64,000 nucleotides of DNA, taken from a virus. The stretch lies in IMG/VR virus record IMGVR_UViG_3300005264_000064, positions 1 through 64,000 of that record. One strand, 5' to 3'. Shown here one piece after another: positions 2,171 to 31,139 of the stretch. The translations under genes were made by a program, and so were the position numbers. Position 1 is the first letter of the stretch. Every line of letters begins with the position of its first letter. The notes beneath the pieces are model-generated. The model ran no database searches. It saw only the letters and a program-made list of their open reading frames with translations, and was not told the origin of the DNA.

Positions 2171-2833
2171 ATGAAGTTATCACTGATACTAGAGCAGGCG
2201 AGAGCCGGTGAGTTGGCCTCTGTGTCAGCTAAGGATAAAACAGACAGAAAGATTGTTAGTTATGTTAATTTGGCATTGATAGCGTTGTACAATAGATTCC
2301 AGTTGTCGACGGAAGAGGCTATAATCGAGTTGCAAATGGAGCCTGCTAGGACTATATATAGTATGGACGGAACTGACCCTAATGTACTAGTTAAAGGACA
2401 ACCGATGGCAGAAGACGAATTTATGGCTATTGTCGGTGCGTATAACGAGAACGGGACTGTAATTAGTGTAAATGACGACAATGATCCTGCAAGTATATAT
2501 ACTGTCAGTTATAACCAATTGCAGGTTCCCTTAATAGCGGAGAACGCGTTTGTCAGTGTAGTATATAGGCAGAATCCTACGTTGGTAACGTACGTAGATG
2601 ATGGTAACGGAAATGCGGCAGAAGCAGATGTTCGGGTACCTATGCAACTGCTGGACGCAATGCTACACTACATTGGGTATAGAGCACATGGTGCAATCGA
2701 GGGTAACGTGCAGGCAGAAAATAACACACACTACACTAGGTTTAGATTAGCGTGTGACGAAGCGTTAGCTTTAGGAGTACTTCCCGCGGATGATACAGAT
2801 TTTGGTAGTGTAGAAAGTAAGGGGTTTTTATGA
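2171..2833 (+). CDS. N4 gp67-like head-tail adaptor/virion protein
   Basis: Follows terL, AAGGA RBS, N-terminus MKLSLILEQARAGEL and LHYIGYRAH pattern. Confidence 0.6.
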   Translation: MKLSLILEQARAGELASVSAKDKTDRKIVSYVNLALIALYNRFQLSTEEAIIELQMEPARTIYSMDGTDPNVLVKGQPMAEDEFMAIVGAYNENGTVISVNDDNDPASIYTVSYNQLQVPLIAENAFVSVVYRQNPTLVTYVDDGNGNAAEADVRVPMQLLDAMLHYIGYRAHGAIEGNVQAENNTHYTRFRLACDEALALGVLPADDTDFGSVESKGFL

Positions 2834-4347
2834 GAAGAAGTAGTTTTCAGTCTGTTGATGTGAGTATGTCAAGAGAGATATATAGTCAGTACGAAGATGT
2901 GAAGGTAGTTGCTGATAACATCGAAGACGTTGTCAAGGTTGCGGACGGTGTTGACGACAGGACGTTTACGGCGGCGGTGGCGGTTACAACTGAGCCATTT
3001 AAGAGTGAAGTAACTACTGTAGCTGGGGCAGCTACCGAGGTGTCTACTGTAAGCGGAATCTCTGCTGACGTTGTCACTGTCAGTGGGTTACAGACAGAAA
3101 TACAAAGTCTCGTAGCTGACAAGGTAGCACTAGACAGTTTATACGCAGATAAGGCTACACTAGACAGTTTATACGCAGATAAAGCAACGTTGGATAGTTT
3201 ATTTGCAGACAAAGCAACACTAGACTCATTAGTAGCCGATAAAAGTGTGTTGGACAGTCTGTATGCGGATAAAGCCGTATTGGACAGTCTGTATGCGGAT
3301 AAAAGTGTATTGGATACTGTACACAGCAAATTAGCAGAAATCGAAGTAGTCTCTGCAGATATCGACAGTGTTATTACCGTAAGTGATAATATGTTAGCCG
3401 TGAACAGATACTCAGATACGTATTACCCTCCAAGTGCTACTGCTCCTACAACTAAACCTAGTGGCGGAGCAAGGGTTAAAGGTGATATGTACTTTAATAC
3501 GACTGAGGGTAAACTAAAGGTATTTGACGGCACTATTTGGGATAATGCGGGTAGTACTGTAAACGGTACTAGCAAGAGAGCAGTTATTGTTGCTACGGAA
3601 GGACAGACGGTGTTTTCTGTCGCTGGTGGATATGACCCCGGGTATGCAGATGTATATTTGAATGGTAGAAAGCTATTAAACGGAACAGATGTATATGTAA
3701 GCAGTGGAACAGATGTAGTTCTATCAAGTGGAGCTGCTGCAGGAGATGTAATAGACATAGTGGCATACGGGGCGTTTGTGTTAGCAGATTTCTACAGTAA
3801 AGCTGAGATCGACTCAAAAAACAATACGAAAGTGTCAAAGACGGGTGATGAAACAATAGCAGGGGTTAAAACATTTTCAAGTTTTCCTGTTACTCCATCA
3901 AGTGAACCAATCGGTAGCTATGATGTAGTTAACAAGAAGTATGTTGATGATAGTGTAGGGGAGTCAATTCCTTCTGGCGTAATAACTATGTGGAGTGGCC
4001 TCATAAGTGCAGTTCCAAGCGGTTGGTTTCTTTGTAATGGAGCAAATGGTACTCCAGATTTAAGAAATAGATTTGTTTATGGTGCAAGTGTAGATGGGGA
4101 CGTAAGTGCAGTTGGCGGTAGCACGACTACGTCAGAGGCTGGTTCACACACACACAGCATACCAATATCGGGCTGGTCTTATTCAACATCAAACGCAGCA
4201 GGGTATTTGCTCACAGGAAGAAAGTCAGGTGTTATGCACGCAGAGTATGCAAGAGCAAGCGCAACCCAAAATGTAGCTGGCAGTGGGGCTCATACTCATA
4301 CTACGTTACCACCATACATGAAATTAGCATACATAATGAAAGGGTAA
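2830..4347 (+). CDS. Tail fibre protein with 10-aa repeats and C-terminal tail-collar-like domain
   Basis: DSLYADKAxL repeats, GDMYFNTT motif, IPSGVITMWSG...PSGWFLCNGANGTPDLRNRF collar, HTH metal-binding motifs. Confidence 0.8.
   Translation: MRRSSFQSVDVSMSREIYSQYEDVKVVADNIEDVVKVADGVDDRTFTAAVAVTTEPFKSEVTTVAGAATEVSTVSGISADVVTVSGLQTEIQSLVADKVALDSLYADKATLDSLYADKATLDSLFADKATLDSLVADKSVLDSLYADKAVLDSLYADKSVLDTVHSKLAEIEVVSADIDSVITVSDNMLAVNRYSDTYYPPSATAPTTKPSGGARVKGDMYFNTTEGKLKVFDGTIWDNAGSTVNGTSKRAVIVATEGQTVFSVAGGYDPGYADVYLNGRKLLNGTDVYVSSGTDVVLSSGAAAGDVIDIVAYGAFVLADFYSKAEIDSKNNTKVSKTGDETIAGVKTFSSFPVTPSSEPIGSYDVVNKKYVDDSVGESIPSGVITMWSGLISAVPSGWFLCNGANGTPDLRNRFVYGASVDGDVSAVGGSTTTSEAGSHTHSIPISGWSYSTSNAAGYLLTGRKSGVMHAEYARASATQNVAGSGAHTHTTLPPYMKLAYIMKG
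3103..3315 (+). repeat. About 7 x 30-bp in-frame tandem repeat (DSL[YFV]ADK[AS][TV]L)
   Basis: Degenerate repeats of gacagtttatacgcagataaggctacacta visible in the sequence. Confidence 0.9.
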
Positions 4348-14339: not shown

Positions 14340-14531
14340 ATGATACACTACACTTACTTACTAATGGATCCGGACTCTGATAAAATGTATATCGGAGTCA
14401 GGTCCTATAAAGGCAACCCGGTAAACGAAGTAGTAGTGCAGTACTTACTAGGTGCAGGGGGTGTACCCATTCATCAAACACAGACAGCGAGCGGTGGCGA
14501 GAGTCCAATACGTCAGTATCACCAGACGTAA
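14340..14531 (+). pseudogene. GIY-YIG (Seg-like) homing endonuclease remnant
   Basis: HYTYLLMDPDSDKMYIGVRS resembles the GIY-YIG N-terminal strands, then the sequence degenerates. 63 aa only. Confidence 0.6.
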
Positions 14532-15107: not shown

Positions 15108-15758
15108 ATGGCATTGAATATAGAGAAAAGAGTTAGAGCACTAGCTACTGACAACTGGGGTGCCTGGACAATCACTACAGACGCACCGCCTTACACAGAT
15201 ACAAATTATACAGACATTGGGCTAGGATTAGCGCAGTACAGAGTCGCAAGTCTCACAGATATAAATATAGCAGATTTCACTAATGGTAGTGCAGTAGCAG
15301 TTGATGACGGTTTTGAGTGGGAGGGTACAGGTGTGTTTGATGTGCTCATGAAGGCAGTGAACGGCAATGTTCGAGTAGAGTTTGACAGTGGTAGAATTAC
15401 TGGGCCAGACTACGCTACAGTGTATTTAGGATCTATACAAACGGCCATTCAGTCGGCGATGCAGTTCTTATTACAAAAGCAGCAGACAGAAGCTCAGACA
15501 GATACAGCCAGAGAACAGAAAAACTTACTACTGAAACAACAGTTACTTGTCGAGAGACAGACTAAAGGGTTTGACGACGATGCTAAGCAGAAATTACTGA
15601 AGCAGACACTAGATAGTTGGTCAGTGGCGTATTCAGTAGCCCAAGATTCCAATTCAATTCCTGATACCATTAAAGTTAACGTAATTGATAGTATTATGAA
15701 AGATGCGTATACTAACCTAGGTATTGCGGTAACTAACGACCCTATCGGAGAACAGTAA
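15108..15758 (+). CDS. N4 gp54-like virion structural protein
   Basis: GTGVFDVLMKAV...EFDSGRITGPDYATVYLG, and GFDDDAKQK. Confidence 0.75.
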   Translation: MALNIEKRVRALATDNWGAWTITTDAPPYTDTNYTDIGLGLAQYRVASLTDINIADFTNGSAVAVDDGFEWEGTGVFDVLMKAVNGNVRVEFDSGRITGPDYATVYLGSIQTAIQSAMQFLLQKQQTEAQTDTAREQKNLLLKQQLLVERQTKGFDDDAKQKLLKQTLDSWSVAYSVAQDSNSIPDTIKVNVIDSIMKDAYTNLGIAVTNDPIGEQ

Positions 15759-15997
15759 TGGAAGAGGTACTAGAGTATATCAACTCCGAGATCAGAGAAG
15801 AGAGAGGCACTAGAGTGACTATCGATAGTAGTCTCCGAGATGCTGACCTGGACAGTTTTGGTATCACGATGGTGTTTGTGGCCCTTGATGGAGAATACGA
15901 TTATTTTACCAAAGGCGGGTACGGCAAAGACCCATTCAAAGAGATACAGTATGATAAAATTACTATTAAAGAGATTGTAGAGACATGTATGTTATAG
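15758..15997 (+). CDS. Acyl carrier protein-like
   Basis: 79 aa, acidic, L.DADLDSFG (phosphopantetheine-Ser motif), ends in TIKEIVE. Confidence 0.7.
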   Translation: MEEVLEYINSEIREERGTRVTIDSSLRDADLDSFGITMVFVALDGEYDYFTKGGYGKDPFKEIQYDKITIKEIVETCML

Positions 15998-16839
15998 ATT
16001 ACCAGTACAGGGTACCTACAGTTGACTGTGGGGACCACTTAGAGATAGAGGGGATTACTCGTGACGATTACACGACTGCACAGTATGTTGAAGGAGCTGA
16101 TAAGATAGTACTGACAAAGCCTACAGCAGTGCTATTCGCAGGAGGGGTGGGTATACATCAGTCTGAGAGTAGAGATGTAACTAGTACTAATAAGCGATAT
16201 GTTGGAAGCGTACCGTACGGTAAGAGTAAAATGCTGGTTAAGGAGATATCTGCGTACAGCCTACACAAGTGGGTTGGTGAGATGGAAAATAATGAGCTAG
16301 TGTGTTACGCGAGTATTAACCACAATACATGTGCTAGTAGTATGCACAGTGTCTACGAGGCACAGAGACTACTGGATAGTGGAGAAGTAGATGAAGTTAT
16401 TGTGATTACAGAGGAGAGAACGAGCTTTAACACGATCAGAATTTTCAAAGAGCACAACATCCCTCTTACAGTGAGTGATGGTTTTGCAATCGTCAGATTT
16501 GGAAGAGAAGGTGCTGTAGAGGTCACGGACACGAAGTGGAAGTATGAGTGGGGTAGAAACCCTTTTGGGACTAGCATTGAAGGGTACAAACTAGTAACAT
16601 CAGAATGTGATGTTGTTAAGCCTCATGGTACAGGGACAGACAGTAATAATGAAGCTGAGGTTGAGTTAGTTGCTGGTAAAAAGACAGTGTACTACAAGCC
16701 TAAGTATGGACATATGCAGGGTGCTAGCTCTCTAGTTGAGATGTGTCTAGTGATGGACGATGATAATGTACACGGGGACGTATTGTGTGTAGCGGCAGGT
16801 TTAGGGGGTTTCTACGGCTCTTGTGTGATACATAAATGA
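15985..16839 (+). CDS. Beta-ketoacyl-ACP synthase-like (thiolase fold, compact)
   Basis: TCASSMHS (Cys), PHGTGTDSNNEAE (His), KPKYGHMQGASSLVE (His), GLGG. Confidence 0.85.
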   Translation: MYVIDYQYRVPTVDCGDHLEIEGITRDDYTTAQYVEGADKIVLTKPTAVLFAGGVGIHQSESRDVTSTNKRYVGSVPYGKSKMLVKEISAYSLHKWVGEMENNELVCYASINHNTCASSMHSVYEAQRLLDSGEVDEVIVITEERTSFNTIRIFKEHNIPLTVSDGFAIVRFGREGAVEVTDTKWKYEWGRNPFGTSIEGYKLVTSECDVVKPHGTGTDSNNEAEVELVAGKKTVYYKPKYGHMQGASSLVEMCLVMDDDNVHGDVLCVAAGLGGFYGSCVIHK

Positions 16840-17333
16840 GAACAAGGTACAAGACAAAGGCAGGAGGAGTTTACGAAGTTAGAAAGTGCAGTATAGAAGA
16901 AGTAGCGGGACACTACCAGAAGCTTAAGGGGAGTACTGAAGACGTTAGTGAAGAGGAGTACTTAGGACGCATGACTAAAGCTGCGGAGCAGAAATGCGCG
17001 TGGGTAGTTATCAAAGACGGCGTAGAAGTAGCCCACATATATGTGTACAAAGTTATCAACATGTGGTTGACTGCTAGTATATGGAGTAAAGATACTATCG
17101 GGGCGTTATTGATGTTCAAGGCGCTACACGATGAGCTGGGGAATATAACAATTAGGCATATACCGCATGCGGATAGGCCTATGGAGCTTAAGTCACTAGC
17201 AACTAAGAAAAGTATTAGGTTGTTCCATGCAGGTAATGAGTATGTACGAATTAGTACCAAAGAGATGGAAACGAAATATAGGCGAATGTATGAAGTACTA
17301 GGAGTCCAGAAATGCCAGGAGCAAAAAAAGTAG
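16836..17333 (+). CDS. Hypothetical protein, possibly GNAT-like acyltransferase
   Basis: AWVVIKDGVEVAHIYV strand pattern, translationally coupled to the KS gene. Confidence 0.35.
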   Translation: MRTRYKTKAGGVYEVRKCSIEEVAGHYQKLKGSTEDVSEEEYLGRMTKAAEQKCAWVVIKDGVEVAHIYVYKVINMWLTASIWSKDTIGALLMFKALHDELGNITIRHIPHADRPMELKSLATKKSIRLFHAGNEYVRISTKEMETKYRRMYEVLGVQKCQEQKK

Positions 17334-19849
17334 TAGAGAGTATTATTGACGCAGTTGTGGACGTAGTTGAGGCGATTATAGACGCAATAGGGGATATATT
17401 AGAGTTTATATGGAAAGATATACTAATGCCTGTGTTCGAGTTTATAGTAGGTTTGTTTGGTATCGAGGATGAAGATGTAATATCAACACAGGTACTGACG
17501 CAGCGTGTTGTACAGGATGATGTTAAAATGAGTGACCTGATGACAAAGATTGCGTTGGAGGAACAACAAGCTCCTGTAGGTATAATAGATAGGCTACAGG
17601 CTTACTCAGAAATTACACGTAAAAGATATAGTGGCTACTTTACCTACGGTGACGAGACTTTCTTAGATGGTTTGCCCGAAGGGAATTTACGAGCACTAGC
17701 AATTAACGAAGGCGTGATAAAGACTACGATTGATAACATTTACGGGATTGACGCCACGCTCATAAGTACAGAGCTAGGTGTTGTAGATAAAGAGGCTTAT
17801 GTAGGGTTTCACCTTCAAGAGTCATACGGCTATACACCTTACAACAACGTCCTGCCTTATGGGGGTGTTGATTGGAGTGTATCTAATATAGATTATAACT
17901 ACACAACTGATGTGTACGACGTGTATATCAGGAGACAAGAAGATCAGACTACTACTACAACTACAACTACGACAATTTCAGTCACAGACAACGTACAAGG
18001 AGCAACAGCTCTTAGTAAGAGTGCGGAGGCTGCGACAACTTATGTTGAGCTGACGATTGACGGTAGCACGCACACAATCGACGTGAGTGAGGGTGCTTGG
18101 GCGTATAGCTTAGCGGGTTACGTGGATGGTAGTTACCTGTACACAGTGGTGGAATATGATGTTAGTGGTGTAGTAGTAACTACTTATGACGACACGGTGC
18201 TTGTTAATAACTACGAAGTAAAAAGAACCTTAGTAGAAGAGCGAGTAGTGGTTGTGGGAAGTATTCAAGGGGAGTTTAGTAATGTTGTAACTGTTCTCAG
18301 TGACACTTCTGAGGATGTCCTGGTAGGTACTACAGTTGAAAGTGTCGAAGATGTAGTAAGCGTTGTGGATGAGGTAGATGTAACATTTGCGACTGATATA
18401 CTCCAAGTAAACTCTTATGAACCTGTAAGGTACTATAAGGTAGTTTACTACACAGTTGACGCAGGTGAGTGGTTGTACTGGGTGTACAAAGCCGGTGCGG
18501 GGACGTACCCTGATGTTGACAACACTTCAGAGTACACAAAAGACTTAGACATGTTGCCAGTAATTACGGTGAGAAACAGCACGATTAGTATCAATGAGGA
18601 TAAGCAGAGTGCTAGGTATATTCAGTCTAAGAAGATGCTAAACTTCTTAGGTATAGAGATTGATAGCTTCACAGAAGGTATTGAGGAAAGTCCCAATATA
18701 GATACCATAGAGGACACATTTATACATTTCGGACTGTTACCAACAGATAACTCTAAGGTAGTTTCGAAAGTGTTGTTCAAGACTTTCGACTATGTGTTTT
18801 ACGACAGTGGTCTTAACCAAGAAGGAAAGTACGTCACAACAATGACGGAAGGTAGTTATAATGCAGCGATGTCCTGGTCTTCGCAGACAAGAGTGGTTGT
18901 TGATGGGATAATAGGAAGCAGAGGGCATTACGAGCATGCAATAGTAGGTAAAAACTTAGTCATGAAATGGCAGGCTGCAGAAGAGCAGTATGTAGTTTTA
19001 ACTATAACAAACTTAAGTAGTGTAACATTTATAGATAGGCAAGGGCTAGTAGGATGTGCCTCTAAAGATGTTGACAGGGACGGATTTTACGTACCTCTGT
19101 CTTACTTCTTTGTAACACAGCTTAGTCCACTGGAGCAGTATGAGTTGTATAACAGAAGCTTACTGCTATCGAACTACGCGGCAGATGTACAGCATTTGGA
19201 GTGGTATGAGACTGATGGGTTTATGAGCTTCTTGCAGATTATTGCAGTTATTATCACAATAGTTAGTTTTGGGTCAATGGCTTGGGTTAACGGAGTAGGG
19301 TTTACCGCTGCGGCAGTGACACAGGCAGCAGTAAATGTAGCGATAGGTTTAGCGGTATCGATAGGTGCCACAATGCTGTTAAAGCTGGTTATGGAAAGTA
19401 CTGACAGTGAATTTGTTAGAATACTCGCTGCGGTAGTATACATAGTTGGGATGTCCTATGGTGCAGGCATGGCAATGCCCACAGACGCAAGTATGCTGGT
19501 ACAAGGTGTTACAATGTTCGCTACAGTAGTGGCTACAGCAAGTACCGCAGTAAGTATTAACACTAACATTGAGATGGCTAAACTACAAGAAGAAATGGGC
19601 ATATTTAATACTAAACTTGAACAAAGAGAAGAGGAGTTAGACAAGGCACAGGAAGCTTTAGACGTGGGGTTGAGCGTGGAAGAAATTACAGGAATAGTAA
19701 GCCTAGAGTTAGAGCCTGCGTACTTGTACGGAGTTGATGCGATGATGCACAGGGCAGTGGGTATGCAGTACGAGTTTGGCACTATGTACGATTACGGACC
19801 TCTAGTTGGGGACTTTTATGAAAAGAAAAAGCAATTAGGTGTAGTTTAA
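17312..19849 (+). CDS. N4 gp53-like large virion protein with C-terminal transmembrane helices
   Basis: 845 aa, amphipathic N-terminus, HLEWYET followed by several hydrophobic helices and a coiled coil. Confidence 0.65.
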   Translation: MPGAKKVVESIIDAVVDVVEAIIDAIGDILEFIWKDILMPVFEFIVGLFGIEDEDVISTQVLTQRVVQDDVKMSDLMTKIALEEQQAPVGIIDRLQAYSEITRKRYSGYFTYGDETFLDGLPEGNLRALAINEGVIKTTIDNIYGIDATLISTELGVVDKEAYVGFHLQESYGYTPYNNVLPYGGVDWSVSNIDYNYTTDVYDVYIRRQEDQTTTTTTTTTISVTDNVQGATALSKSAEAATTYVELTIDGSTHTIDVSEGAWAYSLAGYVDGSYLYTVVEYDVSGVVVTTYDDTVLVNNYEVKRTLVEERVVVVGSIQGEFSNVVTVLSDTSEDVLVGTTVESVEDVVSVVDEVDVTFATDILQVNSYEPVRYYKVVYYTVDAGEWLYWVYKAGAGTYPDVDNTSEYTKDLDMLPVITVRNSTISINEDKQSARYIQSKKMLNFLGIEIDSFTEGIEESPNIDTIEDTFIHFGLLPTDNSKVVSKVLFKTFDYVFYDSGLNQEGKYVTTMTEGSYNAAMSWSSQTRVVVDGIIGSRGHYEHAIVGKNLVMKWQAAEEQYVVLTITNLSSVTFIDRQGLVGCASKDVDRDGFYVPLSYFFVTQLSPLEQYELYNRSLLLSNYAADVQHLEWYETDGFMSFLQIIAVIITIVSFGSMAWVNGVGFTAAAVTQAAVNVAIGLAVSIGATMLLKLVMESTDSEFVRILAAVVYIVGMSYGAGMAMPTDASMLVQGVTMFATVVATASTAVSINTNIEMAKLQEEMGIFNTKLEQREEELDKAQEALDVGLSVEEITGIVSLELEPAYLYGVDAMMHRAVGMQYEFGTMYDYGPLVGDFYEKKKQLGVV

Positions 19850-19893: not shown

Positions 19894-20448
19894 ATGACTA
19901 AAAATAAATATGGCAACACGTCGTTCAACACAAGACCTTCTACATACACGGATATGATGTATGGGACTGGGAAATATAAAAGCTATTCCCCCTCAATGTA
20001 CAGTGATGTGTACACAGGGGCACAAATGTCAGGCGGGCCTATTAAAGTAGCCCCCTCACAGGTTGGTGGATTCCCTGAAGGACTCGCCGGCAGTAAGCTA
20101 GCGGGGGTCTACGGGGCGGTAGGTACAAAAGTACCTCAGACGAAGACAGGTCCAGGTTGGATGGGTAAAGGTGGTTACTTGGATACAGGTGCTAGCGTTG
20201 TCGGTGCTCTTAGTGGGCTAGCAAGCGCATACACAGGGTACAAGGGGCTACAACTAGCTGAAGACGAATTTGAGTTTAATAAAGCATTGTCACAGACTAA
20301 CCTAGCTAATCAGGCGAAGTTGATTAATGAGCAAAGGCTTAACGCAGGTAATGTTGGACTCGCGCTAGCAGGGAACACTATGTCTGAAGCAGATAGGACA
20401 GCTACCAGAAGTAAAATTACTGCAGGCAATGTTGCCGGAAAGATATAG
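19894..20448 (+). CDS. N4 gp52-like ejection/virion protein
   Basis: GLASAYTGYKGLQLAEDEFEFNK...NLANQ, conserved position. Confidence 0.6.
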   Translation: MTKNKYGNTSFNTRPSTYTDMMYGTGKYKSYSPSMYSDVYTGAQMSGGPIKVAPSQVGGFPEGLAGSKLAGVYGAVGTKVPQTKTGPGWMGKGGYLDTGASVVGALSGLASAYTGYKGLQLAEDEFEFNKALSQTNLANQAKLINEQRLNAGNVGLALAGNTMSEADRTATRSKITAGNVAGKI

Positions 20449-20457
20449 GGAGACACT

Positions 20458-22398
20458 ATGGGTAGACCAATATCGTGGAAAGATGTAGGATTTAGAGGTG
20501 GAAGTGCAGCCAACATGGCAGTAGCTCAGCGGGGGTTTAATAACCTCGGCAAAGCTGCTAAGGACTTTCAAGATAAAATAGCAAAAGATGCTGCTTACGA
20601 GGATACGCTGCAGCAGAGAGCAATTGAGAATGAGAGAGCAGATACTAGTCTAAGACTGTTGCAGAATGCTGATACGAGAGCGCAAGGTGAGGTTACCAGA
20701 GCACTTACAAGTGAGCAGGCTATCAAGGACGCGCTTCTGGGTACAGCCAAGAGTGCAGCAATAGATAGCAAAGTAAACAACGCGTATGAAGAGTTGACTA
20801 AGAGGTTCAAAGGTAACTATGGTACTGGATTAGAGACAGATGAGTACACGCGAGAGTTGGACAAGCTCAACGCACAGGCGATAAACGCGCACAAGCAAGG
20901 GAATATCTTTGGAACTGTGTATGACTCACATGCCTATGGGCAGAGAGTGCTGGAGGAGGCCTTGAAAAATGGTGCGACCCCTAGTGAAGCGAAGGCTGCT
21001 GGTGTACATGCAGAGAAGATGTATGAGCAGAGATTGAGTAATGAGGACGCAGCACGTAAGGCACAGCTTCTGGGTACTATCAATGCTAGCGAGACAGCTA
21101 ATGTCAAAGCAATTATGGATAGTGTGTCGACCGTGACTAGCAAGACTGGGACCACCAGCGGAGGTAAGGGAAGCAGTAAAAGTGGTCCAGGTAGTAACAA
21201 AGCCTTTTGGACAACACCTGCTGCAATGAACATGGACGCCACAATAGCGACTCTTAAGAAGAACGGCGTGGACGACAGCTGGCTGAATACTGACGGGGAG
21301 TTAAAAGACGCAGGGAAATTGTCGGAGGTACTTAGGAGTGCGTATACTACAGACCCAAAGACAGGGAAAGTAGTATACTTCTCACCTAAGCTGCAGTCTG
21401 ACTTACTGACGAGAGCGATCGGGTCTAATACATTTGCGGGTAACCAAGTAGTTACTGATAGGCTAGTTAAGTTGATTGAAGAGGCTAAGAAAGATCCACT
21501 GTTGTTGCAGTCTATATCGTCTGGGCACGATGGTAGCAAGGGCGGGCGTACCAGCAGTGTGTCAGTGAAGTCGAAGCAGATGTCACAGGCACAGAGTGAC
21601 GCGATAGCTAGCCTTAGGACTCAGGCAAGAAACGCAAGGGCAGCGATTGAGAGAGAGTACGCGCTACCTACTGCCTCTAGCGAATTTAGTAAATACTTCG
21701 GAGGTGGACAAAAGACTGTAGAGCCTGCTGTAGTGAATGGAAGTAAGACGAACAAAGAGGGCAAGGTGTACAAGACAGCAGGTAATGACTTGCTGGTGGA
21801 AACAGTAAAGAAGACGAAGCCGAAGGTCGACAGCAGGGGTGGTACCCAGACAACGAATAGTACCGAAGGTACGAACGATGCGGATATACTGTCTAGAGCA
21901 TTCGAGCAATCAGATGCGCAGGCAGTTGAGAATGAGAAAGACGGGTTTGGGGGAGAGCAGCTAACAGCCTTAGAAAAAGCTGTAGCACTTCGTGCTGAGC
22001 AGCAAAAACAACGACAACTCGATACCCGTAACGACAGAGAAATTCTTAGGGACAGGCTGAAAACACAGGTAAATCCTACAGGCAGTGGCGGGCAAGATCC
22101 TTTTAACTTGAAGGATGCACGAGCACAACTTAGCTGGTTGAGTGATACTTTAGGGTTAAATGACAAAGGTATTAACATTGATATAGACCCTCGTAACTTG
22201 CAGAGTGGCCTATTCACACAGCAACCAACTAGTCCTCGTAGGAATAAAATGTTGCAAACTCCTCAACTAACTCCGTTGCAGTTAAGTGAAATAGCGAAGC
22301 AACCACCAGAGGAACTAGAGCGTACCTACAACAAATTAGGCGAGTTAGACAAGTTGTTGCTTGCGCAATACCTACAGACACATAGAAAGAAACAATAA
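20458..22398 (+). CDS. N4 gp51-like internal virion protein
   Basis: N-terminal PISWKDV, 646 aa, directly before the vRNAP. Confidence 0.55.
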   Translation: MGRPISWKDVGFRGGSAANMAVAQRGFNNLGKAAKDFQDKIAKDAAYEDTLQQRAIENERADTSLRLLQNADTRAQGEVTRALTSEQAIKDALLGTAKSAAIDSKVNNAYEELTKRFKGNYGTGLETDEYTRELDKLNAQAINAHKQGNIFGTVYDSHAYGQRVLEEALKNGATPSEAKAAGVHAEKMYEQRLSNEDAARKAQLLGTINASETANVKAIMDSVSTVTSKTGTTSGGKGSSKSGPGSNKAFWTTPAAMNMDATIATLKKNGVDDSWLNTDGELKDAGKLSEVLRSAYTTDPKTGKVVYFSPKLQSDLLTRAIGSNTFAGNQVVTDRLVKLIEEAKKDPLLLQSISSGHDGSKGGRTSSVSVKSKQMSQAQSDAIASLRTQARNARAAIEREYALPTASSEFSKYFGGGQKTVEPAVVNGSKTNKEGKVYKTAGNDLLVETVKKTKPKVDSRGGTQTTNSTEGTNDADILSRAFEQSDAQAVENEKDGFGGEQLTALEKAVALRAEQQKQRQLDTRNDREILRDRLKTQVNPTGSGGQDPFNLKDARAQLSWLSDTLGLNDKGINIDIDPRNLQSGLFTQQPTSPRRNKMLQTPQLTPLQLSEIAKQPPEELERTYNKLGELDKLLLAQYLQTHRKKQ

Positions 22399-23609: not shown

Positions 23610-26600
23610 GTGGTCGACTCGTTTGTGTATATGAAAGCACTGATGAGTCCTAAAACTGCGGTACAAATGCTGATGGGTGCCACTAATCAACATCTTGAAG
23701 AAAGACTGAAGAATAATGATGGTGATCATGCTAACTGGGAAGAAGTACTAGCTGCAAGTGCAGGAACATCTGTGGAACTGGCTACGGACTTAATTGCAAG
23801 TAAAATGACCTTTGGGATAGGCAAAGGCGTAGGGGCAGTAAATAAGAGAATACTAGGTGCACTGTTCGGTGCAGCGGAGAAATCTAGTAAAAGTATGGTG
23901 AAAACTGTAGCAGTTAAAACAATGAAGACTATAGTCGGAGCTGGAGCAGTTGCCGCAGAAGAAGGCTTAACAGAAGCTGCACAAGAAGCAATGGGTGTCG
24001 TAATAGAGAGGCTACATACGGCAGGATACTCTGACGGTGACATAGATAAGATGTTTGACGAGAAGACTATGAAGAGAATCCGTGAAGCAGGGTATATGGG
24101 CGCATACATTGGTCATGGTCAAGCTGTTATGGGTAAAGGCTTGAATGCTGTCGGGTACGGTGCCGGAAAAGGTGCTAAAGGCCTGGCAGAGAAGATCAGT
24201 AACAAGTACAAGAAAGAGAGCGGTACCGATAAAGCAAGTAATAAAGCACGTGTCGCTGCGGTTAAGAAAAGGTTGCAGGCGGACCTGCGTACACGTGGCG
24301 AATACACGGACACTGTGGACTTAAGCGCACTACCTGATGAGGGGTTGATGGGGCAGTTCAAGGAGTTGAAAGTCCTGTATCAGGCATCTCAGCAGGTTGG
24401 CGATGATAGATTAGAGAAGGAATATGGTAAGAGACTGAAGTTGTTTACAACTGAAGTCGGTAAGAGACTTGGGGATAGAAAAGGTAGCGTAGAGGGACTA
24501 ATAGATAGACCGTTAGGGAATAGAGAAGTTGCCGGAGACTTCTACGACGAGGCGTTTGACGCAGCTGCAGAGGCTATTGATGACGGTAGTGCGGACTACG
24601 AGACAGCGAAGCTGATACACGCTTTAGGTGGGTTAGACGCTGTGAATATTGATGGTATTAACGACAACGTTAAGGACATGTTGAAGCAGATTGATGGTGA
24701 CTTGGCAGACGTGATGACAGCGGAGTTTGTTGATAAGAGTTCACAGAAAGATACTGCTATCGGGAAATTTGTTAAAGATAGTGCTATGGATAGAGTGGAG
24801 AGTATCGAGAAAGCATATAGAGATACGTCGGGTACTATCCAGAAGTTGCAGAATAAGTACATAAATGTACTGAAGAAGATCGGCAAGAGTAGAGTGAAGG
24901 ATGGTACCAGCACGAAAGGTGCTGGTGATACTGACTACAGTATTGGGTTAAAGGCGGTTGCTGCTGGAGAGAACGTAGAGGCATTGAGAGACCTGGTAGG
25001 TGAGACTAGTGATGCCGGGGTGGCTGTGAAAGACGTGATACAGCATTTGATTACGTTGCATAATAAGGAAGATAAGAACAGTACTGTCGTAGGTAAGAAA
25101 ATAAAGGTGGCTGAGGATAGGCTTAAGGGGCTTATCAGTAGGGCTAAGAGGGTCGGGGCGAAGATTAATACTAGTACGCAGAGGGCTGGGTACGAGACGT
25201 TAGTGACCACTGTGGCGGAGATCGGTGAGCTTAGAGCACAGGTAGAGGGTACGGAGGATGCTGAGAAGCGTGCCGAGGCTAGTGCTACCTTAGGGGTGTT
25301 AGAAAAGAGTTTGAATGAGCAGCTGATTGGTAACACGCTGTTTAATAAAGATGCTGTTATGGACAAGTTAGTAAGTAACTTGAAGGCAGTGAAGAAAAAG
25401 CAGGATGCAATTAAGGTACTTAGCAGCAAGAAAGATCTACAGGCGTTTATGAAAGCTTATGGGCGTAGCATTAAAAGTCCGAAGATAAGAAAGGCAGTTA
25501 ATGCTGCGATTAAGAAGATGAAGGCGACAGACAAGATTGGCGGTCTTAGTAAGGGCGTAAGAGCAGCTATACTGAGGGCGGCTAGGGTGAAGAGAACTGA
25601 GTTCTCAAAGAAGGTAAAAAGCACTGAGAGTGCAATCAGATTTGTTGGTCTGGAGAGATACAACGGTAATAGTGTAAAGAACGGTGCACTGGATATTATT
25701 GCTGGCGCGTTGGCAGATAAAGAAGTCACAGTTGTGAAGAGCATCGAGAAAAGAAAAGAGACTAAGAGTAGAGTTGACGAATTGCGCGAAACAGTGAAGT
25801 CACAGATAGCGGATGACACTGGGCTTGAGAGCTTGACAGTTAGTGGTAAAAAGAGACGCAAAGTAGCAGGTAATCTAGGTACGTTGGAGAAGACACTCGA
25901 AAGTGGGGAGAGTACCCAGAAAGAACTGAGAGAAGCGTATGCCTCGCTAGAAGCGTATAAGAGAAAGTTAGATGAAGAGCATAAGGAAGCGCTGGACAGT
26001 CTTAAGGAAGTTCATGAGATTAAAGCGGACATTGAAGAGAATGCTGTCGGGGATGCCTTTCAGGAGATGCTGATGAGTGTTATCAGCGAGCATGACGGGG
26101 TGTTGAGTAAGGCTGCTGTTGGTAGTTTTATAACTAGAGCTAAGGCTACTATATCAGCAACTGAGAGAAAAATAGAGCTTAAGGCGCAGTTCGATGCAGT
26201 AGGAATGCCTACAGTAGAGACTATTGATAGAGCACTCGAGTTAGGGTCTATTGATGATGAGGCTGCTGAATTGATGAAAGAGGTCATTGCTAGTGACCTT
26301 GACGCTGGAGAGATGAAAGTTTTCGGCGAGTTAGTTAAGTTTATGTATAGCATGGTTCCTGGGATGGACTCAGCGGATGTGCTTAGTGATGAAGATGTAG
26401 CAGGTGTACTAACTAGTTACCTTGAAAGTAGGGTGGACATGATGTCTAAGGCATCTAAGGTACTTGGGGCGAAGTCACCGATTAAGGTTGCTGTGAAGGA
26501 AGAGAAGATCGCAGGTATTCATGAGAAGACTGCGGAGACTATTGATAGATTTAGATCGACAAGGGAAGCAGTACAGCAAGATATGCAGGCTGAGTTGAGG

Positions 26601-29600
26601 AAGATTAGAACCGCTAAGACTATGCTGTCGGTGGATAGACGTAATAAAGAGCTATCTAGAAAGCAGAAGAGTGGCCTGCAAGCGTTGTTGAAAGACGCTG
26701 AGGATAATATCAAGAAACTTAAGAAGAGTTTGATGGTTGAGACGGGCCAGATGGTTAAGGTTATCAATGAGAGCTCTTTAGAGGCTGCAGTTAACGATGA
26801 GTTGAAGAAGCCTACAGGAAAAAGAAATAACGTAGGTAAGGTTGTTAATACTATTGAGAGTCACAATGAAGGTGGTAAGAACCATAAGGATGTGACATCA
26901 GCGTTGAATTCAATAGTGGCACTGACTGACATGGTTACTTTTAGTGACACTATGGCTAATAGCATTGACTTTGAGGCTCAAGAGGCGTTGAAGGCATTGG
27001 CAGATGACGTTAATGAAGTGCTAAGTGAGGCGTTTTATAAGGGTACTGATGTAGATTTTAATGTACATTTGTACGCGAAGAATGTAGTACAGAGATCGCT
27101 GATGACGTTGGCGGAAGGGGCTAACAAGAGTAAGCTGGAAGGTAAGGACCTTAAGTTTACAGATACTGTTGCATTTGCGATACATACGACGGCGATGAGT
27201 GTGCTGGACACAGAGTTACTGGGGTGGATCGGGTACAAGGATGACGAGCAGTTGAACAAGTTCTTCGGTAACCCTGAAGCGACGGGTGAGTTGCCCGGTA
27301 GTAATAAGGCAGGTAAGTTGAGACATGCGTACCCATTGAAGTATGCACAAGACCATGCAGGTAAGATATTTGCAAAAGCGTTGGGTATGGACTTTAAGAC
27401 AGCTGCAATTTCAGATAAGCAGAGAGCAATAATATACACGCAGTTGGGGCATATTATAATTACGTACATGAAGCAAGCTGGGTACCTGAAGAAAAAAGAC
27501 TTAGTTTACACTGTGGAACAGCAGAATGTGCATAGAGTTAAAGGTAACAAGATTACGTCGGCGTCAGCGGCTACTCAGAACTTTGTAGTGGTAAACGACC
27601 AGTACAAAGGTAAGAACGTTGAGAAGCTTAGAGCGTTGATAAATGAGGGTGGTATTAGTGACTTCCTGGATGTGTTTATGCCGGATAGAGAGGCGAATAA
27701 GAAGTTTGATACTGTGGTAGTGCACGGAAAGAATGATACCCCGAAGAATACGATGATAGGTAAGAACTTGTCAGTGTTGTCTCAGGATGCGATTAGCAGT
27801 GCGGAGAATACTGCGTATACGTTGAATCAGGAGAAGACAAAAGAAGTGCTGGCAGAGTACGATCAGTTGACTGTGAAAGAGGACGGTACACTCAAAGACC
27901 CTCATATGGACGAGGCAGAAATTGTCGAGTATGTTAATGAAGGGGTAGCGAGTAAGTTCTTCACTCAGTTCGGTGTGATGACGCCTAAAGAGATTGCTGG
28001 TAGTGCGATGCTGTATTCGGATAGAAATGCAGCGTATGAGAACTACAGCACATTCGTGCGTACTTTAGGGTACTTGAGAGAGCTTGATGATAATATTGAT
28101 AAGACTAGAAAAGACATAGCTAGTGTGATTGGTGGTGATAACGTAGGTGCGTTGCCTGTGTATACTAAGTACTTTTACAGTAAGAATGGTAGATTCTTTA
28201 TGGATGCAGCTAATGGCCTGAATCCGCAGACAGAGAAAGAACTGGCTAGATGGTTGTTGACTCCTAGTGGGACGACTAGCCAGGTGGTTACGAGTAAGGA
28301 AGTTATGACTGACGAGCGTAACAGCGGTGTGTTGAATGCTGCTGTTGGTGTAGCGCAGGCATTTGGGCACAGCATTGACAAGTCTACTACGACAGAGTCT
28401 ATTGCCTTTGGTACTAGAATGCTGCAGATGAACTTAGCTGAACTGAAGAGTATGCGTAACAGACTTGCGGCCGGTGAAGACGTGCAAGTTGAATATGGGT
28501 ACAGAGCGATTAACTTTGTCGATGGTAGTGAGAGTGGTGTACTGAAGAAGACTGCGTCTATTGGTAAAGAGCATGAGGTACAAAGACAAGTCGTGTTAGA
28601 TAGCTTGATTGAGAGAGCTAAAGGTAGTGACTCGTTGACTGCTCCGTACGAGATTGACGGTGTGACTAACGGTACTTACTTCAAGACAGCGGAGGCACCT
28701 GTTATCGAAGGGTTCGAGAGTATGTTGAGTAAGACCGGGTTTTATACTGAGAATATGAAGATCTTTGGAACTACTTTTGGGAAGTTGACGGTTAAGCCGT
28801 CGTCTCAGGATGTAATAGCGTTGACTAGACATGTTGCCGCGGGTAAGTCTGATGAGCAGATTGCAAAGGAGTTAGGCTTTGCAGAGCTGCAGATGAGTGC
28901 TGCAGAGAAGAAGTTCTTTAATGACGCGTACGTGTCTATCATTGATGGGTTTACTGTGTTGGAGACTGCTGATGATGCGATGGTATGGGTTAGAGATAGA
29001 CTAAAGAATCTCGACAAGGGCATGGTTAACGCTGGGATTGTGGCGATACCTCAGCTGTATGGTAGTGTAAGACACTTTATGCCGTCAGCGAAAGATAGGT
29101 TAGGTATGGTAACTAAGGCGTTTAGAGATTTTGTCAAATATCCGAAGATGACCTTCGACTACGGTGCGGCGGTGAATAACGTTAGAAAGACATTCGTTAA
29201 TGACATTACAAACGCAGTACTGACTAACGTGTTAACAGAGGCGCAAGAGTTGTTAGAGAGCACTGGAGACATTGACAGAAAGAAGTACGAGAGTCTTCTT
29301 GGCTTGCTTATAGCAGATGCTGCTAGCGCTACAGATAAGGACATTAGAAAGGCTGTGGCTGACGCTGTTGCCGGTATGCAGAAAATGGATATTGAGAAAG
29401 CTGTTAAGATGCCTAAAATGGCTAGCATGGATGTTGTGAAAATTAACGGTAAGATTGTTAGCGTAGGTAAGAACGTTACGTTGCACGGTATGGTCAGTCA
29501 GATGGTTGACGTCCTTGAAGGTAATATGATTAAAGATAAGCTGTTGAAGGACAGTAGTGCGCTGATTGATTATAATAATACGTTGAATACTGCTGCGAAG

Positions 29601-31139
29601 CTTATGGGACATATATTTAAAGTGAAGCTTGAAAAAGGTCTTGAGAAGATAACAGAGTATAACAAGGCTGACCTTAGCGCCAGGGGTATTGACGTAAGTA
29701 AGGTGGAAGCGTCTGTTACTGAGCCTAGTATAAAGCAGGTAGAAGAACTTATAGTTGAACTGGACAGACAAGGGTTTACGCCAGTTGTCAAAGTACCGGG
29801 AAGTTCGGTTGGTGACGGCTCTGGTATTGAGCTGATAGACACTAAGGTGGCTAAAGATAGTGATTCTGTACAGGCACCGTTAGCGGAGGGTGCTAAAGAG
29901 GGTAAGAACTCTATGAGCAAGACGGTATCGACTATATTGAAGGAGCCTGCTGTAGTGCACGCGCTAGCAAGTGTAACAGATACTCACTTCAGTGATGGTG
30001 CAGCGATGGCAGAGTTGTTGAAGAGATATGGAGTGACACCGATACATGACGCTGTTATACTAAACGGGGCGATTGCAGATAGAATTTCAGAGCTGTACGG
30101 GGAGAAGAGTTTTACGATTATGATGGCTCATAGCCCTGTGCACAACTATGCGGATAAGTTGAAGCAGATGTCAGACCAGTTGACAGCGGGTGAGATGGAG
30201 GTACTGTTGACTGGGCTTGAAGGCTTGCCTGACGTAGAGAAGGTAATACTCCCGGCTAGGTACGCAGTGATTGATGAGAATGGTATACCCGAATATGGGA
30301 ATACAGTACAGGAAGAGATTGATAAAGAGTCTAAAGTTGATGTTACACCTGCTGAGGATTTACTTGAGCAAATGAGAAGATGGGGATTACTCGTTGCAGA
30401 GAACAAAGATAAGCTACTGGCGCAAGACATCTGGATAAGCCAGTTAGCGGGCACTGTGAACGGCGTGTATGAGTACAAGCGCGGAAGTATTTCACACGGT
30501 CTTACGGAGATCGAAACAGGACTAACGCATACGGAAACTGCTGTTGAGGTGACTCCGGGGGTTGTGTCAAAGAAAGTCCTGCCTGAGAGACTCTTTAAAG
30601 TGATATGGGGACATACTATAAGACAGGCAATTGGCGAGATTACAACGATTAGCGCAGTGGACCGTACACTTGTCAACACGGAACTGAGGAAGGCTGTAAA
30701 TGAGAATCCGGAACTTGCAGAAGATAAGAAGTACTGGAGCAGTAAGAAGGGTCTTGTCAGCGCACTTACAAAGATCTCAGTTATTGTAGGGCAACGAGAA
30801 GGAAAGCTTAGAGAACTTACTGACGGCGACGTAAATGAACTGATACAGCTTCTGCACAGCGCAGCGGGTACGGAGACTCCTGTTGCTATCATTGACCTGT
30901 ATAATGAGTACATCCTACCTAAGTTGAAAGAGAGAGGTCTTGATGACTTAGGAGAGTGGGTGGAGGATGAAGTGGGGAGTACCGATAGAGCAAATAACCA
31001 AGAGGAAGAAGATATAAGCGGTAATGAAGCTGAAGAAGAGTATACTAGTGAAGATAAAGTTGCTGAAGGTATTAGCGGTCTAGACGATCCAGTAGCACAG
31101 CAAATAATAAGAGACAACTTAAATGAATGCGGAGCGTAG
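23610..31139 (+). CDS. Virion-encapsidated single-subunit RNA polymerase (N4 gp50-like)
   Basis: SKNGRFFM..NPQ, motif A YEIDGVTNG, motif B RDFVKYPKMTFDYG, motif C PIHDA. Confidence 0.85.
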   Translation: MVDSFVYMKALMSPKTAVQMLMGATNQHLEERLKNNDGDHANWEEVLAASAGTSVELATDLIASKMTFGIGKGVGAVNKRILGALFGAAEKSSKSMVKTVAVKTMKTIVGAGAVAAEEGLTEAAQEAMGVVIERLHTAGYSDGDIDKMFDEKTMKRIREAGYMGAYIGHGQAVMGKGLNAVGYGAGKGAKGLAEKISNKYKKESGTDKASNKARVAAVKKRLQADLRTRGEYTDTVDLSALPDEGLMGQFKELKVLYQASQQVGDDRLEKEYGKRLKLFTTEVGKRLGDRKGSVEGLIDRPLGNREVAGDFYDEAFDAAAEAIDDGSADYETAKLIHALGGLDAVNIDGINDNVKDMLKQIDGDLADVMTAEFVDKSSQKDTAIGKFVKDSAMDRVESIEKAYRDTSGTIQKLQNKYINVLKKIGKSRVKDGTSTKGAGDTDYSIGLKAVAAGENVEALRDLVGETSDAGVAVKDVIQHLITLHNKEDKNSTVVGKKIKVAEDRLKGLISRAKRVGAKINTSTQRAGYETLVTTVAEIGELRAQVEGTEDAEKRAEASATLGVLEKSLNEQLIGNTLFNKDAVMDKLVSNLKAVKKKQDAIKVLSSKKDLQAFMKAYGRSIKSPKIRKAVNAAIKKMKATDKIGGLSKGVRAAILRAARVKRTEFSKKVKSTESAIRFVGLERYNGNSVKNGALDIIAGALADKEVTVVKSIEKRKETKSRVDELRETVKSQIADDTGLESLTVSGKKRRKVAGNLGTLEKTLESGESTQKELREAYASLEAYKRKLDEEHKEALDSLKEVHEIKADIEENAVGDAFQEMLMSVISEHDGVLSKAAVGSFITRAKATISATERKIELKAQFDAVGMPTVETIDRALELGSIDDEAAELMKEVIASDLDAGEMKVFGELVKFMYSMVPGMDSADVLSDEDVAGVLTSYLESRVDMMSKASKVLGAKSPIKVAVKEEKIAGIHEKTAETIDRFRSTREAVQQDMQAELRKIRTAKTMLSVDRRNKELSRKQKSGLQALLKDAEDNIKKLKKSLMVETGQMVKVINESSLEAAVNDELKKPTGKRNNVGKVVNTIESHNEGGKNHKDVTSALNSIVALTDMVTFSDTMANSIDFEAQEALKALADDVNEVLSEAFYKGTDVDFNVHLYAKNVVQRSLMTLAEGANKSKLEGKDLKFTDTVAFAIHTTAMSVLDTELLGWIGYKDDEQLNKFFGNPEATGELPGSNKAGKLRHAYPLKYAQDHAGKIFAKALGMDFKTAAISDKQRAIIYTQLGHIIITYMKQAGYLKKKDLVYTVEQQNVHRVKGNKITSASAATQNFVVVNDQYKGKNVEKLRALINEGGISDFLDVFMPDREANKKFDTVVVHGKNDTPKNTMIGKNLSVLSQDAISSAENTAYTLNQEKTKEVLAEYDQLTVKEDGTLKDPHMDEAEIVEYVNEGVASKFFTQFGVMTPKEIAGSAMLYSDRNAAYENYSTFVRTLGYLRELDDNIDKTRKDIASVIGGDNVGALPVYTKYFYSKNGRFFMDAANGLNPQTEKELARWLLTPSGTTSQVVTSKEVMTDERNSGVLNAAVGVAQAFGHSIDKSTTTESIAFGTRMLQMNLAELKSMRNRLAAGEDVQVEYGYRAINFVDGSESGVLKKTASIGKEHEVQRQVVLDSLIERAKGSDSLTAPYEIDGVTNGTYFKTAEAPVIEGFESMLSKTGFYTENMKIFGTTFGKLTVKPSSQDVIALTRHVAAGKSDEQIAKELGFAELQMSAAEKKFFNDAYVSIIDGFTVLETADDAMVWVRDRLKNLDKGMVNAGIVAIPQLYGSVRHFMPSAKDRLGMVTKAFRDFVKYPKMTFDYGAAVNNVRKTFVNDITNAVLTNVLTEAQELLESTGDIDRKKYESLLGLLIADAASATDKDIRKAVADAVAGMQKMDIEKAVKMPKMASMDVVKINGKIVSVGKNVTLHGMVSQMVDVLEGNMIKDKLLKDSSALIDYNNTLNTAAKLMGHIFKVKLEKGLEKITEYNKADLSARGIDVSKVEASVTEPSIKQVEELIVELDRQGFTPVVKVPGSSVGDGSGIELIDTKVAKDSDSVQAPLAEGAKEGKNSMSKTVSTILKEPAVVHALASVTDTHFSDGAAMAELLKRYGVTPIHDAVILNGAIADRISELYGEKSFTIMMAHSPVHNYADKLKQMSDQLTAGEMEVLLTGLEGLPDVEKVILPARYAVIDENGIPEYGNTVQEEIDKESKVDVTPAEDLLEQMRRWGLLVAENKDKLLAQDIWISQLAGTVNGVYEYKRGSISHGLTEIETGLTHTETAVEVTPGVVSKKVLPERLFKVIWGHTIRQAIGEITTISAVDRTLVNTELRKAVNENPELAEDKKYWSSKKGLVSALTKISVIVGQREGKLRELTDGDVNELIQLLHSAAGTETPVAIIDLYNEYILPKLKERGLDDLGEWVEDEVGSTDRANNQEEEDISGNEAEEEYTSEDKVAEGISGLDDPVAQQIIRDNLNECGA

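Follow-up and report, generated by a model that had tools for sequence, protein, structure and literature searches.

A predicted acyl carrier protein, a compact ketosynthase and a GNAT-fold protein encoded between the tail-tube and tail-plug genes of a marine N4-like phage

IVP-A of phage T7 (gp13) is an acetyltransferase-like protein which is non-structural but needed for morphogenesis, and proteins of this type are encoded at an equivalent place in podoviral genomes (Hardies et al., PMC4819975). In phage N4, gp54 forms the tail tube and gp53, present in one copy, is the tail plug, which closes the tube with a hydrophobic knot; gp52 is the outer-membrane channel, gp51 the periplasmic tunnel and gp50 the virion RNA polymerase (vRNAP) (PMC13434306). 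In this study, we analysed a window of 64,000 nucleotides from a marine N4-like phage, namely the first 64 kb of the 102,937-bp viral record IMGVR_UViG_3300005264_000064, which CheckV rates as complete. At positions 15758-17333 the window carries a cassette of three genes for an acyl-carrier-like protein (ACP), a compact ketosynthase (KS) and a GNAT-fold protein, here called ORF3. Like IVP-A, ORF3 is a small acetyltransferase-like protein encoded between tail-tube and ejection-protein genes.

Two further systems resemble the cassette. HlyC and other toxin-activating acyltransferases (TAAT) are small acyltransferases that use acyl-ACP and not acyl-CoA as donor, and acylate a membrane-active RTX toxin that is encoded next to them. 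HlyC draws on the ACP of the host, whereas here ACP and KS are both encoded by the phage itself. In the case of picornavirus VP4 and reovirus mu1N, an internal or released protein of the capsid receives an acyl group at its N-terminus from an enzyme with GNAT fold and then attacks the host membrane; these viruses use the N-myristoyltransferase and the acyl-CoA of the host. The likeness to the cassette is by analogy only, and at the N-termini of the cassette-linked proteins Ser, Pro or Ala occur besides Gly. A literature search found no description of an ACP-KS-GNAT cassette, and in the literature found IVP-A is not reported to have an ACP or KS as a partner.

The cassette and its three proteins

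The cassette genes are tightly coupled, since the junctions in the order gp54-like/ACP/KS/ORF3/gp53-like consist of TAATG, a 13-nt overlap, ATGA and a 22-nt overlap. This confirms the original prediction, made from the sequence alone, of three coupled genes between the gp54-like and gp53-like structural genes. Because its flanks are gp54-like and gp53-like, the cassette sits between the tail-tube and the tail-plug gene: the gene at the gp54-like position is annotated as N4 gp54-like in named schitovirus records, and a tblastn search with the 845-aa protein downstream found proteins at the gp53 position in 78 named schitovirus records, one of them annotated as 'N4 gp53 protein'. The portal (phrog_1216), the major head protein (phrog_1357) and the vRNAP (phrog_2206) are also encoded on the + strand. 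The genes and features of the region are as follows.

15108-15758, + strand: gp54-like virion protein, 216 aa (phrog_2050, E 1.7e-34); its stop overlaps the ACP start (TAATG)
15758-15997, + strand: acyl-carrier-like protein, 79 aa, pI 4.29, with the candidate phosphopantetheine Ser33 in LDSFG
15985-16839, + strand: minimal CHH-type ketosynthase, 284 aa, with Cys116, His214, Lys238 and His243
16836-17333, + strand: ORF3, GNAT-fold protein, 165 aa, pI 9.33, in the slot of IVP-A in other podoviruses
17312-19849, + strand: gp53-like tail-plug homologue, 845 aa (phrog_2220, E 1.4e-51), candidate target
17312-17476, + strand: hydrophobic/acidic N-terminal extension of the gp53-like protein (about residues 1-46) and GLFGIEDED motif (residues 47-55)
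19894-22398, + strand: 184-aa and 646-aa proteins at the N4 gp52 and gp51 positions, assigned by position only, alternative candidate targets

Neither an excess of promoter- or terminator-like sites nor a GC anomaly was found in the cassette region, and a moron or a recent transfer was rejected on these grounds. A search of the phage genome yielded no phosphopantetheinyl transferase (PPTase), no FabD and no second carrier protein, and the phage has no reductase or dehydratase partner for the KS.

Judged by its conserved residues, the first gene encodes a carrier protein with a candidate phosphopantetheine attachment Ser. The Asp-Ser motif that had been pointed out earlier (Asp32-Ser33 in LDSFG) is invariant across 25 syntenic ACP-like homologues, and in searches of the family profile against the PDB, which returned almost only acyl or D-alanyl carrier proteins, Ser33 falls on their attachment Ser (NodF, E 2.4e-4). 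Six of the 25 family members also match the Pfam PP-binding domain (PF00550; best E 1.8e-4). With 79 aa and a pI of 4.29 the protein is a small acidic one, and the Atlas's own model (pLDDT 0.87) gives it the helical-bundle fold and places it with PP-binding clusters at TM 0.65.

Together with its relatives, the KS makes up at least 176 metagenomic clusters, whose members are about 280 aa long. Cys116 (NTCASS), His214 (KPHGTGT), Lys238, His243 (GHxQG) and a C-terminal GxGGxYGSC are invariant in an alignment of 36 members, and the family profile retrieved only ketosynthases from the PDB, with the catalytic motifs in register. The AlphaFold2 (AF2) model of the KS (pLDDT 95.3) matched the actinorhodin KS in Foldseek with an E of 4e-12, followed by FabF/FabB and by KS proteins and domains of type II and modular polyketide synthases (PKS). 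In the VIA comparison the model was superimposed with Z 27.4 and an rmsd of 2.4 Å over 261 of its 284 residues, covering residues 14-398 of an enzyme of about 400 aa. As the fold match spans the whole enzyme, the KS has the full core of the thiolase fold, from which about 120-130 residues of insertions are missing. Thus, the predicted structure and the alignment indicate that the Cys-His-His-Lys site is complete and catalytically intact, and the claim that the Cys-His-His triad is kept in a protein of 284 aa holds across the family.

With FabF/FabB and the type II and modular PKS ketosynthases the phage KS shares the thiolase fold over the whole length (Z 26-27), the Cys-His-His triad with Lys, HGTGT, GHxxGA and the C-terminal GxGG. 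It differs from them in length (284 aa compared with about 400-420 aa), in the absence of the roughly 120-130 loop and cap residues, in an identity of 12-19% and in having no ketoreductase (KR), dehydratase (DH), enoylreductase (ER) or chain-length factor (CLF) partner. Its score for NCBIfam fabF is 21 bits against a cut-off of 494, and NCBIfam otherwise adds only sub-threshold KS matches; in length and curated score, the protein falls short of the elongating ketosynthases. The family was seen in viral or metagenomic DNA only, and a pattern-based scan of about 185,000 cellular species genomes revealed no relative.

At 50% identity, the family of ORF3 comprises 237 clusters, whose members all have a length of about 160 aa; given families of this size for both the KS and ORF3, chance is far exceeded. 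The earlier suggestion of a possible acyltransferase, with Foldseek on 16836-17333 as the proposed check, agrees with the predicted structure: the AF2 model (pLDDT 92.2) has a GNAT fold, for which the order of elements is beta1-alpha1-alpha2-beta2-4-alpha3-beta5-alpha4-beta6, and the top 50 Foldseek matches are all GNATs (best E 1.5e-4). In the VIA-wide comparison essentially every match was a GNAT, with Z up to 9.2, and the structure matches in the Atlas are mostly to GNAT families. The fold matches in BFVD are all GNAT-class as well, but mostly unnamed, and therefore do not confirm an IVP-A. In Pfam, neither ORF3 nor any of 78 family members had a match. A sequence match to the GNAT 3bln (E 4.8e-4) that was obtained with a shallow profile disappeared with a deeper one; the GNAT assignment therefore rests on fold and not on sequence. 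The CoA-pyrophosphate loop (Q/R)xxGx(G/A) after beta4 is found in 3 of the 78 members, and its columns are not conserved. The residues that are kept best are Tyr69 (75/78), Ala55, Met46 and His111 (70/78), all within 70-75 of 78.

Relationship to IVP-A was searched for at the sequence level. PF11090 (T7 gp13) and PF11039 (DUF2824) gave no match anywhere in the genome at E<=10 and matched 0 of the 78 ORF3 family members, and hhalign reached 0.45% to T7 gp13 and 0.18% to a PF11039 protein that occupies the same slot in a related locus (L059). Without such similarity, ORF3 is an analogue of IVP-A in slot and fold class and not a demonstrable close homologue. For HlyC/TAAT there was no Pfam match at E<=1 and no TAAT structure among the fold matches listed; likewise, ORF3 had no Pfam match to LuxI, and no LuxI structure was among the fold matches listed.

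A fixed slot with graded content

A scan with the KS family alignment led to 32 viral loci with KS relatives, whereas a scan of viral contigs with the single KS protein had returned nothing. In total, the cassette gene order was found again in more than 40 viral contigs. In the 32 loci the order is nearly universal: portal, gp57-like, capsid, gp55-like, gp54-like, ACP (about 80 aa), KS (about 285 aa), ORF3 (about 160 aa), gp53-like, gp52-like and gp51-like; homologues of the 184-aa and 646-aa proteins are syntenic across the surveyed loci. The KS, with 33-68% identity across loci, is the best-conserved protein of the region, compared with 24-45% for the capsid protein. The synteny survey that had been proposed as a check of the position thus found the cassette, with stop and start codons that overlap, fixed directly upstream of gp53-like or ejection genes, also on very divergent backbones. 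In L020, phrog_511 ('internal virion protein') and phrog_21132 ('DNA ejection') come after the cassette. A vRNAP is encoded in 8 of 10 tested cassette records; a group of records of about 47 kb (L027-L031; one rated complete, one flagged as provirus) has the cassette and no vRNAP. As stated in the original prediction, the cassette genes are missing at this place from N4 itself: in eight schitoviruses (N4, VBP47, D505, Pollock, pVa5, Littlefix, phi50-12 and 1.238.A) gp54 is joined directly to gp53.

The content of the slot is graded, with four states: none, GNAT only, ACP and GNAT, and ACP, KS and GNAT. A survey anchored on gp53 covered 33 further loci, of which 17 have the full cassette, two ORF3 only (L063 and L077) and several neither. 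The cultured Alteromonas phages PT11-V19 and R22Y represent the third state: besides an ACP-like gene they have a homologue of ORF3 (hhalign 99% and 98.7%), which overlaps the gp53-like gene, and a search of either genome for a KS detected none. In L059, the open reading frame in the slot, which overlaps the start of the gp53-like gene, encodes a true PF11039/DUF2824 GNAT (32.9 bits, cut-off 25) that matches GNAT models too. As the series keeps the GNAT constant and adds first the ACP and then the KS, the GNAT may be regarded as the effector and ACP and KS as its supply.

The downstream protein tends to change together with the slot. Cassette-free gp53 proteins start at or near MG(L/W/F)FS(K/S)K in 8 of 8 schitoviruses, with a hydropathy of residues 2-45 of at most 0.27. 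Proteins downstream of a cassette have about 40-50 extra residues of hydrophobic/acidic character, and their hydropathy is at least 1.0 in 15 of 22 cases. In the gp53-anchored survey, a hydrophobic N-terminal extension was present in 17 of 17 loci with a full cassette. It is followed by a conserved motif, (G/S)LFGI(E/K/T)DE, which seems to correspond to the GLFS N-terminus. The N-terminus MPGAKK, to which the original prediction had drawn attention, is not the conserved feature. The same prediction had described the 845-aa protein as membrane-spanning; it does have hydrophobic segments (residues 8-33 and 633-722), but it is a homologue of the N4 tail plug and not simply a membrane protein. The short downstream proteins of L025, L027 and L031, which are not gp53-like, start with MGG(I/V)(A/V)K and an amphipathic helix.

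Several observations on individual loci were made alongside. The gp53 N-terminus MG(L/W/F)FS(S/K)K is kept across schitoviruses of E. coli, Pseudomonas and Vibrio (N4 gp53 start at L044 8195; L036-L042), for which the literature found offers no reason. In L025 (IMGVR_UViG_3300019760_000001, 107.7 kb) identity to the proteins of the window is 72% for the capsid protein and only 34% for the KS, and the gp54- and gp53-like proteins show no detectable relation to those of the window; this divergence in identity indicates that the tail/ejection module has been swapped in mosaic fashion, along with a divergent cassette. In L027-L031 the ACP-KS-GNAT triad lies between genes for the head and genes for tail fibres; the protein encoded after it has 300 aa and a similar amphipathic N-terminus with Met-Gly-Gly. 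Incomplete variants are L018, with ACP and KS but without ORF3, and L033, with a KS relative and no ACP-like open reading frame upstream. Outside the cassette, a 63-aa open reading frame of the window (14340-14531, + strand), located between the capsid and gp55-like genes, starts with YTYLLMDP...KMYIGV, a motif that recalls GIY-YIG homing endonucleases, and may be a remnant of one. The vRNAP match (phrog_2206, profile positions 2235-3046) lies in a 1731-aa frame (31143-36338, + strand), and a 2509-aa frame upstream of it (23610-31139, + strand) has no PHROG match. In relatives the vRNAP matches are distributed over two giant frames, and the polymerase of this lineage may be split or much enlarged.

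Possible functions of the cassette

The reading that we favour, tentatively and at somewhat less than an even chance, is that a phage-private supply of acyl-ACP feeds an IVP-A-like GNAT, and that this GNAT puts an acyl group on the tail plug or on an ejection protein. Since AcpS and FabD are both missing from the phage, Ser33 would be primed by the AcpS of the host and malonate loaded by the host FabD. The small KS would take an acyl primer on Cys116 and condense it with malonyl-ACP to give a (3-oxo)acyl chain on the phage's own ACP, which would keep this chain insulated from the lipid synthesis of the host. The basic GNAT would then dock the acidic acyl-ACP and move the acyl group to an amine. 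Potentially, the likeliest acceptor lies in the hydrophobic extension with which the gp53-like plug begins, and would be the alpha-amine after Met removal or a Lys; alternatively, an ejection protein encoded downstream might be acylated. The lipid would aid the assembly of the plug or the ejectosome, or insertion into the outer membrane of the host at infection. The opposite charges of ACP (pI 4.29) and GNAT (pI 9.33) and the absence of the CoA motif fit this reading. The original prediction had proposed a dedicated lipidation system for a virion protein, most plausibly the adjacent 845-aa protein. The identities of the three genes and their fixed position agree with this proposal; acylation as such, and the 845-aa protein as its target, are suggested by the genetic linkage and the hydrophobic N-terminal extension.

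Several results weigh against the favoured reading. The KS reaches 19.9 bits with Pfam Ketoacyl-synt_C and stays below the cut-off of 20.8, and the ACP of the window, taken alone, has no Pfam match at E<=1. None of the ORF3 residues is invariant across the 78 members, so the protein could be non-catalytic. In the absence of reductases, the chemistry of the KS would yield a 3-oxoacyl product only, unless host enzymes finish the chain. The association of extension and cassette is also imperfect: L054, L062 and L075 have the extension and the LGIEDE motif without detectable ACP, KS or GNAT, and L059 has the extension and the PF11039 GNAT, but no ACP, KS or ORF3-type GNAT. The extensions of these four loci are less hydrophobic than the cassette-linked ones, and the cassette lineages may share ancestry. 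A Met-Gly start was considered as a marker of the acylation site and rejected, as cassette-free gp53 proteins, that of N4 included, also begin with Met-Gly.

The lack of an invariant residue and of a cofactor-binding motif in ORF3 would be expected if the protein acted without catalysis, as a chaperone or scaffold for incorporating plug and ejection proteins in the manner of T7 gp13 or P22 gp14, with acyl-ACP as a holdase. Until the plug is assembled, the acyl-pantetheine arm would shield the hydrophobic helices at its N-terminus, comparable to acyl-ACP on mitochondrial LYR proteins. In agreement with such a role, the hydrophobic extension accompanies the cassette, T7 gp13 is labelled 'probable scaffold protein' by Pfam, and IVP-A is non-structural yet required for morphogenesis (PMC4819975). 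However, beyond the need for an acyl chain this explanation does not account for the strict conservation of the KS catalytic site; furthermore, loci with the GNAT only are without any phage ACP, and there is no sequence link to LYR proteins. We regard such an assembly factor as unlikely, though worth keeping in view.

Fold neighbours of the GNAT and the KS allow a different suggestion, namely that the cassette makes a small molecule, such as a free N-acyl amino acid, a signal resembling acyl-homoserine lactones or a short polyketide. The role of the GNAT would then be that of FeeM or LuxI, or else that of a malonyl-ACP decarboxylase of the CurA type, by which the KS is primed; the product would join the virion or manipulate the host. 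Acyl-ACP-dependent GNATs are indeed among the neighbours of ORF3 (FeeM, Z 7.5; CurA loading GNAT, Foldseek E 5.4e-3), and the nearest KS folds include type II PKS KS/CLF pairs. On the other hand, the genes overlap those of tail tube and tail plug and keep the same place on unrelated backbones, and Pfam revealed no match to LuxI or other synthases. Decarboxylation for the KS cannot be the core function, since versions with ACP and GNAT or with the GNAT only exist. Synthesis of a small molecule is thus rather improbable.

ACP and KS are components of fatty-acid synthesis, and the cassette could consist of auxiliary metabolic genes that boost or redirect the fatty-acid synthesis of the host during infection. 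The ACP of R22Y was published in this sense, as an auxiliary metabolic gene for host fatty-acid metabolism (PMC11705849). It belongs to the same ACP-like family as the ACP of the window and has the same genomic place: in R22Y (PP212876, L035 4158-4938) the ACP gene overlaps the gene of the ORF3-type GNAT, which in turn overlaps the gp53-like gene. Located between the tail tube and this ORF3 homologue, the R22Y ACP is the same structural-module gene, which argues for a role in virion assembly, and the published interpretation is probably wrong. The original prediction had likewise spoken against an auxiliary fatty-acid pathway, and the fixed place of the cassette in the late tail operon, its native composition and the lack of an own promoter or terminator argue in the same direction. 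Moreover, the distance of the proteins to cellular ACP and FabF is large, with scores below the Pfam cut-offs, and the KS family is restricted to viral and metagenomic sequence in the pattern-based scan of species genomes mentioned above. A metabolic role of this kind is therefore quite improbable. Modification of the host envelope (lipid A, lipoprotein or peptidoglycan) for lysis timing or superinfection exclusion, by genes that merely ride in the late operon, would fit late expression and the many amine substrates that GNATs acylate, but is highly improbable given the tight, conserved coupling to plug and ejection genes and three proteins in which no signal peptide or membrane segment was noticed, although no formal search was made.

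Meaning for podoviral ejection proteins

The favoured reading bears on how podoviruses prepare their ejection proteins for assembly and for crossing the envelope, and on the role of the IVP-A gene next to them. With a carrier protein and a ketosynthase in one version of the slot, a specific chemistry is indicated, namely the transfer of acyl groups from the carrier. It is tempting to speculate, as a possibility that we still consider doubtful, that these tailed phages lipidate their own tail plug or ejection protein by means of a self-encoded acyl-ACP pathway and an IVP-A-type GNAT. The hypothesis is testable in the cultured phages R22Y and PT11-V19, which have the form with ACP and GNAT. Independently of its role, a compact ketosynthase of 284 aa that occurs in viruses only could be of interest to enzymologists, and the published reading of a phage ACP as a fatty-acid 'auxiliary metabolic gene' would be corrected. 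If lipidation proved true, the IVP-A proteins (T7 gp13, P22 gp14) would be N-acyl or acetyl transferases acting on proteins, which make ejection proteins ready for insertion into membranes, and the system would be the bacterial-virus counterpart of myristoylated VP4 and mu1N.

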